From the NCBI GenBank assembly GCA_963760885.1, contig CAVXEY010000007.1:136883-200882 (forward strand): DNA of 64,000 bases, in the 5' to 3' direction. The first letter of the stretch is position 1, and each line of letters opens with the position of its first letter. Positions 12,697-64,000 of this stretch are shown here, one piece after another. The translations under genes were made by a program, and so were the position numbers. A model generated the notes under the pieces. The model was not told the origin of the DNA. It searched no databases and saw nothing but the letters and a program-made list of their open reading frames with translations. The DNA is from an uncultured delta proteobacterium. GTDB lineage: Bacteria > Desulfobacterota > Deferrimicrobia > Deferrimicrobiales > Deferrimicrobiaceae.

Positions 12697-13674
12697 ATGG
12701 GACCGGTTCGGAACGTGGATGACCTGATGGCGCTCGGGCACGGCTACCAGCGAGCGATGATCCTGTTCGCCGCGCTGAAGCTCGGGGTGTTCCGGGGGCT
12801 TGCGGGCGGGGGATGCGACGCACCCGCGCTGGCGCGCCGGGTCGGCGCCGACCCGGGGAAGCTCTCCATCCTCCTCGACGCGCTCGCGACCCAGGGGCTG
12901 GTCGGGAAAAAGGGGAACAAATACCGGAACGCGCCGGCCGCGCGGGACCTCCTGCTCCCGGGGCCCCGTTCGATGGAGTCCATCCTCCTGCACCTCCTCG
13001 ACGGGTGGGGGGAATGGGGCCGCCTTCCCGCCACGGTACGGGCGGGGCGGACGCCTCGCGGAGGTGTGGAGGGGAACCTGCAGGAGAACTTCATTCGCGG
13101 GATGGAGGAAAACGCCCGCGAGCGGGCGGCGGCCGTGGCCCGGCAGATTCCTCTCCGCGGCGGGGACCGTCTCCTCGACCTCGGGGGCGGCCCGGGGTCG
13201 TATGCCCTCGCGTGGGCCGACGCCTGCCCGGGCGCGGAGATCACCGTCTTCGATACGCCGGCGACGCTGCGGGTCACGCGGAAGATCCTTCGGGAGAAGG
13301 GCGCGTACGGGCGGGTGCGCCTGGCGGAGGGGGATTTCCTCAAGGACCCTCTCGGCGGACCGTACGATTTCGTGTGGATCTCCCAGATCCTGCACGCCTA
13401 CTCCGAATCGGACTGCGTGAAACTGCTCCGCCGGGCGCGCTCCGCCCTGGTCCCGGGCGGGCGGGTGGCGGTCCAGGAGTTCCTGCTGGCGGAGGGGAAG
13501 ACCTCCCCGCCGGGACCGGTCTTCTTTTCCGTCCACATGGTGGCGGTGACCGAGGGCGGAAGGGCGTACACGGCCCGGGAGATCACGGCGATGATGAGGA
13601 CGGCGGGATTCCGGAAGCTCTCCGCCGATCCGCCGGACCCGCGGGGCGTCGGCATCGTGCGGGGGGGCGCGTGA
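12697..13674 (+). CDS. class I SAM-dependent O-methyltransferase (N-terminal dimerisation domain plus MTase)
   Basis: LDLGGGPGSYA SAM-binding motif. O-MTase-like layout. RBS GCAGGAGGTG. Confidence 0.75.
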   Translation: MGPVRNVDDLMALGHGYQRAMILFAALKLGVFRGLAGGGCDAPALARRVGADPGKLSILLDALATQGLVGKKGNKYRNAPAARDLLLPGPRSMESILLHLLDGWGEWGRLPATVRAGRTPRGGVEGNLQENFIRGMEENARERAAAVARQIPLRGGDRLLDLGGGPGSYALAWADACPGAEITVFDTPATLRVTRKILREKGAYGRVRLAEGDFLKDPLGGPYDFVWISQILHAYSESDCVKLLRRARSALVPGGRVAVQEFLLAEGKTSPPGPVFFSVHMVAVTEGGRAYTAREITAMMRTAGFRKLSADPPDPRGVGIVRGGA

Positions 13675-14560
13675 ACCGCCGCACGCCGCTCGGCAAAGGG
13701 GCGCTGAATCGTATCAGGGGCGCACAACAAGAATGGAACAGGAAGACTCGTCCCGATCGATTGCCGCAATGGCGATCCGCATCTTGTTTTATTTTGGCAT
13801 TTCCTCCATGGAGGGAAGGTGTGATGACAAGCGAATTGCGGATCCGGATCCCGGTTGCCGGATGCGAAAACGATGGCGGTTCGCCCCTCACCCTGCATAT
13901 CTGCGCAGGGCAGCACCCTCGGGGGAGGTTCCAGAAATAACGTATATATTTCGAATAATTTCATTAATATAGCGACTCAACCGCGTGCTCTCGACATTTT
14001 CGGATTCTCTTTGACCCTCGGAACGGGGGCGGGGAAAAACGGGTGATGAGATATTCGATGGCCTGTTGAGTTTTACAACACAAATTTTCGTTACGAATGC
14101 AATACGCATTTCCGCTGATTTCGGGGTGCAAAAATATTCCGCATCCAAAGATTTCCCGCCATCGAATCATTCGTGTGGCAATCCACCAGATAATTCATTA
14201 AATATCCGCATGTTGAACGGTGTCATGGATCCGGAATCCACCTCTGTGGCAATGAATGCGGTCGCCATGCGGCTGGAAGGGGGAATGTAGAAAAATTATA
14301 GTACTGTAGAATATTTCTATTATAGTATTCTTAAAAATATCGGTAGTAGCGGCATCATCTTCCACTTCATCCCATAAAATGATATTATTTCAAAAATAAA
14401 ATAATGTATCGGTGAAAATTATTTCGTAGTAAGCAGAATCGTCATAATTCCTTAATTTTGTCAATATCATTCAAGTCTTATATTGTAACAATAAAACATT
14501 ATTTTAATGTATTCGTATAATGGAAATAAATTATTTGTATGTCGTTTTGCTGAATTTGTA

Positions 14561-14589
14561 TTGACAGATACTGGAATTGTGCGTAGTTT
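14561..14589 (+). promoter_or_regulatory. sigma70-like promoter candidate inside the AT-rich island (TTGACA-17 nt-TAGTTT)
   Basis: Perfect -35 hexamer TTGACA, 17-nt spacer and TAGTTT -10, about 160 nt upstream of the hdrA-like gene. Confidence 0.4.
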
Positions 14590-14601
14590 GAAAATTATGA
14601 T

Positions 14602-23369: not shown

Positions 23370-23444
23370 TGGTGGGCGCTACAGGATTTGAACCTGTGAC
23401 TTCCACCGTGTGAAGGTGGCACTCTACCGCTGAGTTAAGCGCCC
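23370..23444 (-). tRNA. tRNA-Val (anticodon CAC)
   Basis: Reverse complement GGGCGCTTAACTCAGCGGTAGAGTGCCACCTTCACACGGTGG...GGTTCAAATCCTGTAGCGCCCACCA. Cloverleaf with CAC anticodon and 3' CCA. Confidence 0.85.
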
Positions 23445-24377: not shown

Positions 24378-24473
24378 GGAAGCGGATGGGGCGCTGGTGG
24401 CCCCCCCGGACTTCAAATCCGGTCGGGAGGCGGAAACGTCTCCGGTGGGTTCGATTCCCTCACGCTTCCGCCA
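24378..24473 (+). tRNA. selC: tRNA-Sec-like (anticodon UCA, long variable arm, ~96 nt)
   Basis: GGAAGCGG...CCGGACTTCAAATCCGG...(long extra arm)...GGGTTCGATTCCC...CGCTTCCGCCA. The anticodon loop CTTCAAA gives a TCA anticodon. The acceptor stem is 7 bp plus a G.A pair, which is not ideal for a bacterial Sec tRNA. Confidence 0.7.
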
Positions 24474-57817: not shown

Positions 57818-60707
<2,890 letters not shown>

Positions 60708-60747
60708 CACTTCCGGCCCTGGGAACTTAAAATATCCAATTCCGGGG

Positions 60748-60823
60748 GAGCCCATAGCTCAGTTGGCAGAGCATCTGACTTTTAATCAGAGGGTCGTTGG
60801 TTCGATCCCAACTGGGCTCACCA
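60748..60823 (+). tRNA. tRNA-Lys (anticodon UUU)
   Basis: GAGCCCATAGCTCAGTTGGCAGAGCATCTGACTTTTAATCAGAGGGTCGTTGGTTCGATCCCAACTGGGCTCACCA. Confidence 0.9.
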
Positions 60824-60831
60824 CCGTGCGC

Positions 60832-60909
60832 GTCCCCATCGTCTAGTTCGGCCAAGGACACCGCCCTTTCACGGCGGCGACGGGGGTTCAAATCCCCCTG
60901 GGGACGCCA
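60832..60909 (+). tRNA. tRNA-Glu (anticodon UUC)
   Basis: GTCCCCATCGTCTAGTTCGGCCAAGGACACCGCCCTTTCACGGCGGCGACGGGGGTTCAAATCCCCCTGGGGACGCCA. Close to the E. coli tRNA-Glu sequence. Confidence 0.9.
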
Positions 60910-60927
60910 TATTCCAATGATATTCCA

Positions 60928-62760
60928 ATGAGCAGCGCGCTGATAGATTCCCTTCGCCCGGAAAACCTTCTTCGAACCGGATACAAGGATTGCCTGCTCT
61001 GCGTGGTCCCGCGCCCGGGCGAGGAGGAGCGGTGCCGTGACTGCTCCGGCCGGCTGGACCAGCGTGACCGACTCCTGTGGGAGATCGGGCGGAAGCGGAT
61101 CCGCAAAACGGCGGGGGTCCTTTCGCTCGTCTACCCGGGACTCGGGCATTTCTACTCGGGCCGGATCGCCTACGGGGTCTTCTGGGCGGCACTCCTTCCC
61201 CTGACCCTGGTTCTCGTCTTCAACGTGGGGTCCGGGATCTCCATCGGACACGGCTTCCTCCTGGTCGAGGCGGTCGTGATCTGGTGGATGGCGTATGTCG
61301 ACGCGCGGCGCGGCCCTCGCGATACGGCCGCTCCGTGCGAGAGCGCCTGCCCTGCCCGCATCCGTGTTCCGGACTACATCGCCCTCGTGCGTGAAGGACG
61401 GCCTCTCGAGGCGCTGGCGCTGGTGCACGACAAACTCCCGTTCGCGGCGTTCTGCGGCCGCGCCTGTCCACATCCGTGCGAGCAGATGTGCGTGCGGAAC
61501 GAGTGCGGCGCGCCGATTTCCATCATGGCGATCAAGCGGTACGCGGCGGACCTTGGGTACGCGGCGGGGGTCCCCCCATCATCCGGGGAAAGCGGAGGGG
61601 CACGCGGGCCCGGGGTGGCGGTCGTCGGCGCCGGCGCGTCCGGATTGTCGGCCGCCGACACGCTCGCGCGGCTCGGCGCCCTCGTCACGGTGTTCGACCC
61701 GTACCTGGAACCCGGCGGGATGATGCGGTACGGCGCCGCGGAGTTCCGGTTCCCTGCGGACGCGCTCCTCGCGGACGTGGCGCGAATCCTTGCCCGGGGG
61801 GTGCGCTTCCGGGGCGGGGTGACCTTCGGCAAGGACGTTACATTCGCTTCCCTCGCGGCGGAGGGGTTCGACGCCGTCCTGATCGCCGTGGGATCCCGCG
61901 AAGCGCTGCGGTTGCCAGGAGCGGGAGGAGAAGATCAGGGCTTCCACGATGCGCTTTCGTTCCTCGTGCGCGTTCGGGAACACCGGTTTCCCCGCCTCCT
62001 CGGACGGGTGGTCGTGATCGGCGGCGGGAACGTCGCGGTCGACTCGGCGCGGTGCGCCCTCCGGATGGGGGCGAAGGAAGTGACGATCGCCTGTCTCGAG
62101 TCCAGGGAGGCGATGCCGGCGTTCGCGTGGGAGATCGAGGCGGCCGTTTCGGAGGGGGCGAAGTTCCTTCCGGGCACGTCGGTAAGCCGTTTCCATTTGA
62201 AGGATGGCAGGGTGGCCGCGTTCGAGGCGCTGAAGGTGGAGCGGGTCGACCTCGACACGGACGGGAGGGTCGTTCCGCGGACCGTTCCCGGCACCGAATT
62301 CGAGGTCCCGGCCGACACGATCGTGGTGGCGATCGGAACTCGGCCAGACCTCTCCTTCCTGCCGGACGGAGTCTCCCGGAAGCCCGCGGATCCGCAAGGG
62401 CATGTTTTCCGCTTGCAATTTCCCGGGGGGGAACCTAGAATCCCCGCCTATATGTGCGGTGATTGCGTTCAGGGCCCCGGCACCGTGGTGGAAGCGTCCA
62501 CCTCCGGGCGGGAAGCCGCGTTGAATATCTTCGGGGATCTCGCCGTCGAAGAGGCTAGAAGGGCGCGATACAAGGACAACTACCGCAGGCGCCCCGAACC
62601 CCAAGTGACCGACCGCCCCGAATGGCGGGTCCGGCGCGCGGCGGAGAGGATCTCTCCCGAGGTGGCGCGCGGGACGTTCGACGAGGTCGAAAAATGCTTT
62701 ACGGACCGGTGCGCGCGCGAGGAATCGGAACGATGCGCACGGTGCAATCTCTCGCTGTAG
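60928..62760 (+). CDS. membrane-anchored GltD-like (glutamate synthase small subunit / DPD family) NAD(P)H-dependent FAD/FeS oxidoreductase with an N-terminal zinc-ribbon
   Basis: N-terminal CLLCV...CRDCSG plus 2 TM helices. GltD-type Cys clusters CESACPA...CGRACPHPCEQMC. Dinucleotide folds VAVVGAGASGLSAA and VVVIGGGNVAVD. Confidence 0.7.
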   Translation: MSSALIDSLRPENLLRTGYKDCLLCVVPRPGEEERCRDCSGRLDQRDRLLWEIGRKRIRKTAGVLSLVYPGLGHFYSGRIAYGVFWAALLPLTLVLVFNVGSGISIGHGFLLVEAVVIWWMAYVDARRGPRDTAAPCESACPARIRVPDYIALVREGRPLEALALVHDKLPFAAFCGRACPHPCEQMCVRNECGAPISIMAIKRYAADLGYAAGVPPSSGESGGARGPGVAVVGAGASGLSAADTLARLGALVTVFDPYLEPGGMMRYGAAEFRFPADALLADVARILARGVRFRGGVTFGKDVTFASLAAEGFDAVLIAVGSREALRLPGAGGEDQGFHDALSFLVRVREHRFPRLLGRVVVIGGGNVAVDSARCALRMGAKEVTIACLESREAMPAFAWEIEAAVSEGAKFLPGTSVSRFHLKDGRVAAFEALKVERVDLDTDGRVVPRTVPGTEFEVPADTIVVAIGTRPDLSFLPDGVSRKPADPQGHVFRLQFPGGEPRIPAYMCGDCVQGPGTVVEASTSGREAALNIFGDLAVEEARRARYKDNYRRRPEPQVTDRPEWRVRRAAERISPEVARGTFDEVEKCFTDRCAREESERCARCNLSL

Positions 62761-62803: not shown

Positions 62804-63154
62804 ATGAAGAGATTCGCAATGTTGTTGGCAGTCGTCATGTTGGGGGTGTTCTCGGCCGGCACGATCGTCGCGGCGAACGTTCCCGTGAAAGTGACCATCA
62901 AGGATGTGCAGAAGTCGAGGCCGCCGGTTACCTTCGACCACAAGGCGCACGCGGAACGGATCAAGAATTGCGAGGAGTGCCACCACAAGGACAAGCCCGG
63001 CAAGGAGCAGTCGTGCTTTGTCTGCCACAAGGCCGAGAAGAAGGGCGACGTGATCTCTTTGAAGGACGCCATGCACACGAAGTGCAAGGGGTGCCATTCG
63101 AAGGACGCGACGAAGAAGGCTCCTACGAAGTGTGACGGCTGCCACAAGAAGTAG
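62804..63154 (+). CDS. tetraheme cytochrome c3 family protein
   Basis: Signal peptide. 116 aa with four CxxCH motifs (CEECHH, CFVCH, CKGCH, CDGCH). VTFDHKAHAE start typical of class III cytochromes. RBS GAAGGGGG. Confidence 0.8.
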   Translation: MKRFAMLLAVVMLGVFSAGTIVAANVPVKVTIKDVQKSRPPVTFDHKAHAERIKNCEECHHKDKPGKEQSCFVCHKAEKKGDVISLKDAMHTKCKGCHSKDATKKAPTKCDGCHKK

Positions 63155-63180
63155 GCGATCCGCGGTTTCGCGAACGTCGG

Positions 63181-63214
63181 GAGAGGGCGGGGAAGTTCCC
63201 CGCCCTCTTTTATT
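63181..63214 (+). terminator. rho-independent terminator
   Basis: GAGAGGGCGGGGAAGTTCCCCGCCCTCT hairpin followed by TTTATT. Confidence 0.6.
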
Positions 63215-63296
63215 CGGTGCGGATTTCGATTCCGTTTGACGGCGTGTAACATCTTTGGTATACAGTATTCATTCCGAATAACCGAGGGTGACCCGC

Positions 63297-64000
63297 ATGG
63301 CTGACGAGAAACGCACTCTATCCCCGATGGATCGGGTGTGGGACTTCTTCATCTCCGTCAAGCTGGCCATCGTCACCCTGATCGTGCTTGCCTCCACGTC
63401 GATCCTCGGCACGATCATCGAGCAGAACCAGCCCCTCGAGAAGTACCACCAGATCTACGAGGATTGGGCGTTCGCCCTCATGGAGCGCCTCAACCTGTTC
63501 GATATGTACCACTCCACGTGGTTCCTCCTGATCCTCGTCCTGTTCACCGTGAACCTGTCCTGCTGCACCATCGACCGCTTCCCGAAGATGCTGAAAGTGG
63601 TGCGGAACCCGAGGACGAAACTCGACAGAAGCCTCGAAAAATCACTGTCGCTCTCGGACCGGTGGAAGCGGAAAGGGACCCTTTCGGAGTGGGCGGGGAA
63701 ATACGCGGAGGCGCTCTCCGGTTCCTTCGCGAAGCCGAAGGTCACCGAGGATGGGGGCGAGGTGCACCTGTACGCCGAGACCGGCGTGGCCTCCCGGTTC
63801 GGCGTCTATGTGACCCACCTTTCCATCGTCATCATCTTCATCGGGGCGATCGTCGGCAACGTCGTCGGTTTCAAGGGATACGTGAACATCACCGAAGGGG
63901 AGGCGATCACGCAGGTCCCCATCCGGGGTGGGAGCCGGATTCAGGACCTGGGATTCACCGTCCGGTGCAACTCGTTCACCCTCGAGACGTACCCGAGCGG
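63297..64000 (+). CDS. resB: cytochrome c biogenesis protein ResB/Ccs1 (system II), 5' part (runs off window)
   Basis: MADEKRTLSPMDRVWDFFISVKLAIVTLIVLASTSILGTIIEQN... matches the ResB N-terminal TM/periplasmic architecture. No stop before the window end. Confidence 0.75.
   Translation, partial: MADEKRTLSPMDRVWDFFISVKLAIVTLIVLASTSILGTIIEQNQPLEKYHQIYEDWAFALMERLNLFDMYHSTWFLLILVLFTVNLSCCTIDRFPKMLKVVRNPRTKLDRSLEKSLSLSDRWKRKGTLSEWAGKYAEALSGSFAKPKVTEDGGEVHLYAETGVASRFGVYVTHLSIVIIFIGAIVGNVVGFKGYVNITEGEAITQVPIRGGSRIQDLGFTVRCNSFTLETYPS

Follow-up and report, generated by a model that had tools for sequence, protein, structure and literature searches.

What does a GltD-like oxidoreductase do when it is fixed to a membrane, and which partner would receive its electrons? 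This question is raised by a gene in a stretch of 64,000 nucleotides (nt) from an uncultured delta proteobacterium of the Deferrimicrobiaceae (contig CAVXEY010000007.1 of GenBank assembly GCA_963760885.1; the whole stretch is called the window here). An earlier note, made from the sequence alone, described its 610-amino-acid (aa) product as a GltD-like core fused to an N-terminal zinc-ribbon and two transmembrane (TM) helices, and predicted a membrane-tethered NAD(P)H-linked reductase. Our study confirms this fusion through residue conservation, codon statistics and an AlphaFold2 (AF2) model, and identifies the core as a circularly permuted module of the StnC/NfnABC type. Based on gene order, we tentatively propose that the protein provides electrons to a membrane partner, plausibly in cytochrome c maturation. 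The features of the gene are the following:

60928..62760, + strand: fusion gene, 610 aa; zinc-ribbon, TM hairpin and permuted GltD-like module with predicted sites for flavin adenine dinucleotide (FAD), NAD(P)H and 2x[4Fe-4S]
60979..61053, + strand: Cys4 zinc-ribbon knuckles, residues 18-42 (C22, C25, C36, C39; CxxC-x10-CxxC)
61060..61158, + strand: basic amphipathic helix and interfacial PGLGHFYSGR motif, residues 45-77 (AF2 helices H45-68 and H72-76)
61162..61227, + strand: TM helix 1, residues 79-100 (Kyte-Doolittle up to 2.22; AF2 helix H80-99)
61243..61308, + strand: TM helix 2, residues 106-127 (AF2 helix H106-128; G107-H108 at the periplasmic end)
61324..61563, + strand: iron-sulfur (FeS) domain (Fer4_20), residues 133-212 (C137, C141, C180, C184, C188, K203)
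61603..62541, + strand: FAD and NAD(P)H Rossmann domains, residues 226-538 (GAGASG at 234-239, GGGNVA at 365-370)
62092-62106, + strand: CLESR in place of YRRxR, residues 389-393 (from motif counts)
62593..62757, + strand: C-terminal tail, residues 556-610, ending in ERCARCN (C603 and C606, invariant in 64/64 sequences)

Special attention was given to the reality of the N-terminal extension. The scenario that the earlier note named as fatal to its reading was an annotation artefact with the true start near residue 140, and the corresponding alternative is a soluble GltD-like product that starts near M121. In its favor, the ATG at 60928 is not preceded by a Shine-Dalgarno sequence and lies 18 nt past a tRNA-Glu gene. 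Against it stands the conservation of residues 9-130 as protein. Relatives of 605-610 aa with 99-100% coverage were found in more than 100 protein clusters and fill the best 120 matches, down to 62% identity, and the extension is conserved in 43 species genomes. We used two alignments, one of 16 sequences, which represents the window clade, and one of 64 sequences, which includes both of the linked clades (33-96% identity). The four ribbon Cys, RDRLLWEI, PGxGH and G107-H108 show no variation in the first; the ribbon Cys are present in 61-62 of the 64 rows of the second, the other rows being gaps, and over both alignments RDRLLWEI and the PGxG motif (P70/G71/G73), like the ribbon Cys and G107-H108, are invariant or at least 90% conserved. 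H108 is found in 62 of the 64 sequences, and residue 74 is His in 24 of them and Gln in 40. In codons 9-100, compared across 43 loci, the third position dominates the substitutions (810, 627 and 1488 differences at positions 1, 2 and 3), and 1047 synonymous codon differences were counted against 1014 non-synonymous ones. AF2 is also confident over the extension: residues 1-130 were modeled with a predicted local distance difference test score (pLDDT) of 77-92, in a model of the whole protein with a mean pLDDT of 87.5 and a predicted template modeling score of 0.90. This model was obtained with the 64-sequence alignment, which was used in place of the 16-sequence one because the latter gave an unusable pLDDT of 53. 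Finally, the zinc-ribbon/hairpin N-terminus is fused to a GltD core in several divergent clades. Residue conservation, codon-position statistics and the confident model exclude the artefactual extension, and the soluble product starting near M121 is effectively refuted.

The start itself appears to be of a particular kind. In most related loci (L001-L004, L010, L015, L018-L047), a conserved promoter-like element, TTGCTT(T)-N17-nAnAAT, was identified about 35 nt upstream of the ATG; it ends about 9 nt before the ATG, without a Shine-Dalgarno sequence in between, and this suggests a leaderless or short-leader mRNA. We attribute the missing Shine-Dalgarno sequence to this promoter-like element that nearly abuts the ATG, and its presence at the upstream start in most loci is a further point against an internal start. 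In the window and its nearest relatives, tRNA-Glu abuts the gene in place of this element (60910-60927), and the start is located five codons further upstream. A near-consensus sigma-70-type promoter lies at 60704-60733 (TTGACA-18-TAAAAT, 11/12 matches), directly upstream of tRNA-Lys, and our consensus terminator scan predicted no terminator between tRNA-Glu and the fusion gene; in this genome, the tRNAs and the fusion gene may thus share a transcript.

Regarding the membrane anchor, the whole protein contains strongly hydrophobic 19-aa windows only at residues ~79-100 and ~104-126. Both helices of the hairpin described previously are therefore present, although the string quoted for it in the earlier note covers the interfacial segment and TM helix 1 only; TM helix 2 includes GHGFLLVEAVVIWWMAYVDA (residues 108-127). 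There are six Lys or Arg residues before TM helix 1, none in the loop between the helices and three Arg after TM helix 2. This distribution of charges favors a cytoplasmic location of both termini and thus of the catalytic domain; the cytoplasm is also where a cofactor-bearing domain has to be. An even number of hydrophobic helices, or a hydrophobic hairpin, is retained across all clades. The hairpin, the charge bias, the AF2 model and the Pfam assignment of the core support the prediction of a membrane-tethered NAD(P)H-linked protein, with a putative reductase activity.

In order to trace the origin of this anchor, a profile of residues 1-135 was compared with 1.84 billion proteins, and it retrieved only 67 representatives at E<=1e-3. 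About 10 of these 67 are GltD fusions, from divergent clades, with three arrangements: ribbon and hairpin (P0128, P0131, P0134), hairpin without ribbon (P0144, P0147, P0253, P0254), and ribbon with about four TM helices (P0145, P0188). The rest are small stand-alone or DUF6677/TM2-like proteins. DUF6677 itself matches 10 of 11 members weakly (best E=0.0046, 14.4 bits against a cutoff of 24.3), DZR_2 matches five of 11, also weakly, and Pfam found no family above threshold in the N-terminal 135 aa or in the C-terminal 75-aa tail. Among the small proteins, those with a zinc-ribbon and a PGxG[QH]xYxGR motif (P0157, P0161, P0166, P0179) share with the fusion the CxxC...CxxC pairs, the basic linker, the PGxG and the two TM helices; they have 120-230 aa, no enzymatic domain and no known function, and the fusion differs from them by its GltD core. 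As judged from these sequences, the N-terminal module is a membrane anchor of a generic kind that existed before the fusion, and because it is found in unrelated small proteins, a structural zinc site is favored over a redox center.

The core was assigned to the GltD/NfnB/DPD-type superfamily by two Pfam domains, both above their gathering scores: Fer4_20 (residues 122-210, 71.8 bits against a cutoff of 25.8) and Pyr_redox_2 (residues 230-527, 78.6 bits against 26.1). Two GxGxxG-type dinucleotide motifs (GAGASG and GGGNVA) and eight cluster ligands agree with this assignment. More specific models remained below their cutoffs, both NCBIfam PRK12771 (361 bits against 516) and PRK12814 (331 against 916), which cover residues ~132-607 only, and the glutamate synthase small subunit models TIGR01317 (213 bits against 483) and TIGR01318 (168 against 448). 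No GltB-like large-subunit gene was found in any neighborhood examined, and the protein is not a glutamate synthase small subunit proper. Among solved structures, the closest in sequence are 9n5u_A (NfnABC of T. sibiricus), 9bov_A (Nfn-ABC of C. saccharolyticus) and 8oh5_C (StnC of S. ovata), whose alignments run from residue 132 to 606-607 and include the tail. The same three chains rank first in Foldseek, with 510-518 aligned columns versus about 435 for NfnB, GltD and DPD.

The tail carries a pattern, R..F.EVE....A..E..RCxxC, that resembles the N-terminal segment of canonical GltD. We conducted a permutation test in which residues 556-610 were placed ahead of residues 133-540 and this query was compared with the native order, giving the following bit scores and first aligned chain residues:

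NfnB 4ylf_B: native 185.6 bits, permuted 205.8 bits; first chain residue aligned 45 -> 10
NfnB 5jca_L: native 189.6 bits, permuted 202.7 bits; first chain residue aligned 32 -> 22
GltD 6s6s_G: native 131.8 bits, permuted 149.8 bits; first chain residue aligned 56 -> 24
DPD 1gt8_A: native 95.8 bits, permuted 106.4 bits; first chain residue aligned 76 -> 37

The permuted query thus gained 11-20 bits for NfnB, GltD and DPD and none for the StnC-type chains. As only the canonical chains gain, the core is circularly permuted with respect to classical GltD, a topology that it has in common with StnC. The earlier description of a GltD-like core with two Rossmann folds and two N-terminal Cys clusters needs refining on two points: the protein is of the permuted StnC/NfnABC type and not a classical small subunit, and the first canonical CxxC pair, expected before C137, is missing there and is supplied by C603 and C606 at the C-terminus. 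K203 aligns with StnC K170 and with the position of the Glu ligand of NfnB, R274 aligns with StnC R239, and the position of StnC C114 is occupied by Val. C137, C141, C180, C184, C188, C603 and C606, as well as K203 and R274, are invariant in the 64 sequences.

The core is predicted to have single binding sites for FAD and for NAD(P)H and two [4Fe-4S] clusters, the cluster ligands being the seven invariant Cys and Lys203. By homology with the ligands of DPD, the proximal cluster would be bound by C141, C180, C184 and K203 and the distal one by C603, C606, C137 and C188. C137 is located about 10 residues past TM helix 2 and the chain ends four residues past C606, which would put the exit cluster at the membrane surface. 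NAD(P)H, probably NADH in the window clade, would reduce the FAD, from which electrons would pass one at a time, in a StnC-like manner and without bifurcation, to the proximal cluster (three Cys and Lys) and then to the distal one; the latter, at the membrane face, would donate to a separate membrane-associated partner. An external partner is needed because no further acceptor follows the exit cluster in the chain. The FAD of StnC has been shown experimentally to be non-bifurcating and to feed a linear chain of clusters, with K170 as an important Lys ligand of the FAD-proximal cluster (PMC10482914). Electron bifurcation of the NfnB kind was also considered and judged unlikely, given the StnC-type Lys in place of the NfnB Glu and the lack of an NfnA-like partner nearby. 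As for the nucleotide, the NADPH-type motif YRR(S/T)R occurs in 42 of the 64 members and C(L/I/V)E(S/T)R in the other 22, which form the window clade; this suggests a preference for NADH in the window clade and a switch from NADPH to NADH between the clades.

The partner was sought among the neighboring genes. Those of the window are the following:

60748-60823, + strand: tRNA-Lys(UUU) (ARAGORN, Rfam)
60832-60909, + strand: tRNA-Glu(UUC) (ARAGORN, Rfam)
62804-63154, + strand: periplasmic tetraheme cytochrome c3, 116 aa, with signal peptide and four CxxCH, 43 nt after the fusion gene
63179..63214, + strand: GC-rich hairpin and T-run after c3 (RNA fold of -33.9 kcal/mol), terminator or attenuator
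63236..63264, + strand: promoter-like TTGACG-N17-TATACA ahead of ResB, weak, read by eye and not in the scan output
63297..64000 and beyond the window end, + strand: ResB/Ccs1, System II cytochrome c synthase subunit (from the translation; Pfam ResB in related loci)

The position between a tRNA pair and a c3/resB unit, as noted previously, is borne out, with the tRNAs upstream and c3 and ResB downstream. The tRNA pair was rejected as a functional neighbor: it travels with purA, and in L001, L002 and L004 variable genes occupying about 2-3 kb lie between the pair and the fusion gene. The adjacency of the tRNAs is incidental and is not part of the conserved unit. On the downstream side, a survey with Pfam and tblastn identified the order fusion-(c3)-ResB-CcsA in all 40 Deferrimicrobia loci with enough downstream sequence, CcsA being recognized after ResB by its Cytochrom_C_asm match in related loci. 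The c3 gene (Pfam Cytochrom_CIII, 56.8 bits; TmcA/c7-like) is present in 36 related loci and absent from four Deferrimicrobia loci, where ResB lies at -24 to +54 nt from the fusion gene. CcsA may be followed by an optional block, which consists of a 12-heme DmsE/GSU2203-like cytochrome and ResA-like thioredoxin-fold/TPR proteins without CxxC; further downstream, a TM peptide of 38 aa is encoded, and next a membrane protein of the NapH/MauN-like Fer4_5 kind, whose FeS motifs are cytoplasmic. The 'large subunit' partners of the sulfide dehydrogenase or NfnAB kind, whose co-occurrence the earlier note had raised, are absent from all neighborhoods examined; what is conserved in their place is ResB-CcsA, c3 and the NapH-like protein.

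The hairpin after c3 is kept in at least 25 of the 36 loci (-28 to -34 kcal/mol) despite differing stem sequences; the consensus terminator scan misses it, and it came to light when the sequence was read directly and folded. As a probable terminator or attenuator, it would keep the expression of c3 high relative to that of ResB-CcsA, and the transcription units look like [fusion-c3]-attenuator-[ResB-CcsA...].

Some additional observations were made on this cluster and on the window. A pair of ResA/TlpA-like proteins, in which a thioredoxin fold is fused to TPR repeats, is encoded in the cluster (L001 12925-13935 and 14442-15575; L048 12767-13783 and 13807-14928); their active-site CxxC is replaced (e.g. 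WATWSGRS, WATWSPRS), they match the 'ResA-like WAxxUGC' selenoprotein family weakly, and a role as redox-inactive chaperones of apocytochromes is possible. Downstream of the NapH-like gene, L002 encodes at 12698-14599 a conserved 633-aa polytopic membrane protein with homologues in about 15 loci and no Pfam or NCBIfam match. The window also contains a tRNA-Sec (24378-24473; Rfam, 74 bits) next to a tRNA-Val (23370-23444), and therefore the organism uses selenocysteine.

The fusion is not restricted to Deferrimicrobia. In Deferrisomatales, it is about 35% identical and is followed by the same cluster without c3, with the NapH-like gene retained, while the upstream genes (PTPS, GCHY-1) are entirely different from those of Deferrimicrobia; the carriers include the cultured Deferrisoma palaeochoriense (JCM30394_19590). 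Between the two clades, ResB has diverged to 37-40% identity. A low-GC Thermodesulfobacteriota lineage (L052, which carries P0188, and P0145) has the ribbon, about four TM helices and then the GltD core; L052 shows the PTPS-GCHY-1 pair upstream, as Deferrisomatales do, and its contig ends just past the fusion gene.

From topology and from the two classes, we have a membrane-anchored NAD(P)H flavoprotein that is genetically linked to a cytochrome c synthase. From the conserved gene order, the partner would belong to the System II cluster. Our preferred reading, to which we give slightly less than an even chance, is that the fusion protein is a membrane-tethered, non-bifurcating NAD(P)H input module that serves a membrane partner, with cytochrome c maturation as the plausible purpose; gene order suggests ResB-CcsA and/or the NapH-like membrane polyferredoxin of the adjacent cluster as this partner. 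It would supply reducing equivalents for cytochrome c production. Heme must be ferrous for thioether attachment, and CcsBA binds ferrous heme at a membrane-embedded His site; a heme reductase role has been proposed for CcmF in System I, and Cyc2p, a membrane-anchored NAD(P)H flavoprotein of yeast System III, reduces heme in vitro, while for System II the review that describes them mentions no reductase dedicated to it (PMC3884852). In line with this, we found no reductase reported for System II, whereas Systems I and III have proposed ones. The most plausible role would be to keep heme ferrous at the cytoplasmic heme-entry site of ResB/CcsA, as an analogue of Cyc2p and of the proposed CcmF heme reductase. 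A narrower claim would make these proteins the dedicated reductase that System II has been missing, an NAD(P)H-driven flavo-FeS protein docked on ResB/CcsA, possibly via the NapH-like protein, that would deliver ferrous heme to the cytoplasmic entry site or maintain it there, as a bacterial counterpart of mitochondrial Cyc2p and of the proposed CcmF heme-b reductase; in our estimation, this is rather unlikely.

It is important to consider that several points weigh against a role in cytochrome c maturation. The functional link is drawn from gene order alone; the hairpin and T-run separate fusion-c3 from ResB, so that co-transcription may be only partial; and an anaerobe's cytoplasm may already keep heme reduced. 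To our knowledge, System II in well-studied organisms works without such a protein. In L078 (7812-8167), a Deferrisomatales-type contig, CcsA follows the fusion without ResB, and an opposite-strand 70-aa open reading frame stands alone in the gap. No ResB, CcsA, cytochrome or Fer4_5 gene lies near the fusion in the clades P0253/P0254, P0131 and P0134. Within Deferrisomatales, moreover, collinearity extends to both sides of the fusion gene, with PTPS and GCHY-1 upstream conserved to the same extent as the downstream genes, so that vertical inheritance by itself explains part of the synteny.

One alternative is that the synteny is a historical leftover and that the protein is a stand-alone housekeeping oxidoreductase with its partner or substrate encoded elsewhere, unrelated to the cytochromes. 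The distant, unlinked clades, which sit without a redox partner among housekeeping genes (NadA, MoaC, BamD-like and FtsB-like, near dnaA), and the collinear Deferrisomatales loci would agree with it; yet only the downstream side is shared between the classes, the upstream side being fully rearranged, the fusion and ResB have diverged to a similar degree, and ResB or c3 follows at a very short distance or even overlaps. We consider it unlikely. Another candidate, possible if doubtful, is an NAD(P)H dehydrogenase with a function in respiration or redox balancing, which would reduce the NapH-like polyferredoxin or, directly, menaquinone and so feed the quinone pool; ResB-CcsA and c3 would then be adjacent only through the co-regulation of genes for cytochrome-based respiration. 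NapH-family proteins are quinol/quinone-interacting membrane subunits, and the NapH/MauN-like protein is kept in both clades with its FeS motifs; an exit cluster predicted at the membrane surface would also suit such a dehydrogenase. In Geobacter, likewise, periplasmic cytochrome genes adjoin ResB/ResC with no maturation role implied for the neighbors (PMC2700814). These arguments are countered by the distance of the Fer4_5 gene, 3-8 kb plus optional inserts away from the fusion gene, by its 56 bits, well short of the NapH cutoffs (213 bits), by the unlinked clades without Fer4_5 nearby, and by the c3-less loci, where it is ResB that directly abuts.

A direct conduit of the Tmc/Hmc kind, in which a dimer of hairpins would bind heme b through H74 and H108 and link cytoplasmic NAD(P)H to the periplasmic c3, is suggested by the TmcA-like c3 located 43 nt downstream with no terminator between the genes, by the near-invariance of H108 and by the His at position 74 in the c3-containing clade. 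We find it very improbable. Position 74 is Gln in most sequences and the clades P0131, P0134 and P0147 lack H108, which made us judge heme-b ligation by these residues unlikely; the two His would also be on opposite membrane faces and on different helices, too distant for a two-heme relay. Furthermore, the hairpin is a DUF6677/TM2-like anchor that recurs in unrelated small proteins, and c3 is missing from Deferrisomatales and from four Deferrimicrobia loci. No cytochrome b, NrfD-like or CCG genes were found in the cluster, and the c3 scores 60 bits against the TmcA model, whose cutoff is 114. A thiol-reducing role of the CcdA/ResA kind was rejected as well: Cys is absent from the TM hairpin, the Cys4 motif is that of a generic ribbon, and the ResA-like TPR proteins of the cluster lack CxxC.

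Soluble FeS enzymes commonly exchange electrons with NAD(P)H through GltD/NfnB/StnC modules, which are their standard ports of entry and exit. The fusion is such a module without flanking redox domains and fixed to the membrane, an arrangement that would link a membrane partner directly to the pyridine-nucleotide pool. The fold and the chemistry of the module have been described before, whereas its membrane-anchored form stripped of other domains and its linkage to System II appear not to have been. Source annotations of the relatives are generic ('glutamate synthase beta subunit-like', 'FAD-dependent oxidoreductase'), and our literature searches found no description of the fusion protein or of the cluster, the MBNT15 genome paper being silent on the protein. 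The position before ResB-CcsA in cytochrome-rich iron-reducing lineages makes it a testable candidate for the ferrous-heme question of System II, and the cultured carrier Deferrisoma palaeochoriense makes genetic and biochemical testing possible. If the link were one of co-regulation only, the protein would still represent a kind of membrane-associated NAD(P)H dehydrogenase for which there is no earlier description.

Among known systems, the locus resembles ppcA-GSU0613(ResB)-GSU0614(ResC) of Geobacter, where a small periplasmic multiheme cytochrome lies directly upstream of ResB/ResC and multiheme cytochromes follow (PMC2700814); our literature searches turned up no GltD-like gene upstream of Geobacter ppcA. 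Cyc2p is the functional parallel to the proposed role in cytochrome c maturation, with FAD, NAD(P)H, a membrane anchor and a genetic tie to that process (PMC3884852), whereas the fusion is linked to it by gene context. The redox domain of Cyc2p faces the intermembrane space and that of the fusion protein faces the cytoplasm. Cyc2p is not known to be related in fold to the fusion protein or to contain FeS clusters.

The canonical GltD, NfnB (4ylf_B, 5jca_L) and DPD N-terminal domains have the same fold and cofactor set as the fusion core, with template modeling scores to the target of 0.75-0.79. Their first CxxC pair is N-terminal, whereas that of the fusion protein is C-terminal; they are soluble proteins that function together with a large subunit (GltB, NfnA), and the fusion has no such partner nearby. 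NfnB has a Glu as cluster ligand in place of the Lys, and DPD has a Gln where the fusion protein has Lys203. The nearest relatives are the StnC (Sporomusa ovata StnABC) and NfnABC large subunits, to which the fusion core is about 31-33% identical over ~475-518 positions. StnC-type proteins are soluble and have ~950-1180 aa, in contrast to the membrane-anchored 610 aa of the fusion; they carry N-terminal [2Fe-2S] and C-terminal NuoG/FdhF-like cluster domains that feed a HydBC-like bifurcating module. In the fusion protein, no Pfam domains of the [2Fe-2S] or NuoG/FdhF-like kind were found and the chain ends four residues after the CxxC, and no NuoE/NuoF-like genes of a StnAB/HydBC module occur within +/-7 kb in eight annotated loci. 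What the fusion and the StnC type have in common is the permuted topology, the RCxxC after the Rossmann domains, the Lys ligand and the Arg near the FAD, together with the predicted FAD site, NAD(P)H site and two [4Fe-4S] clusters.

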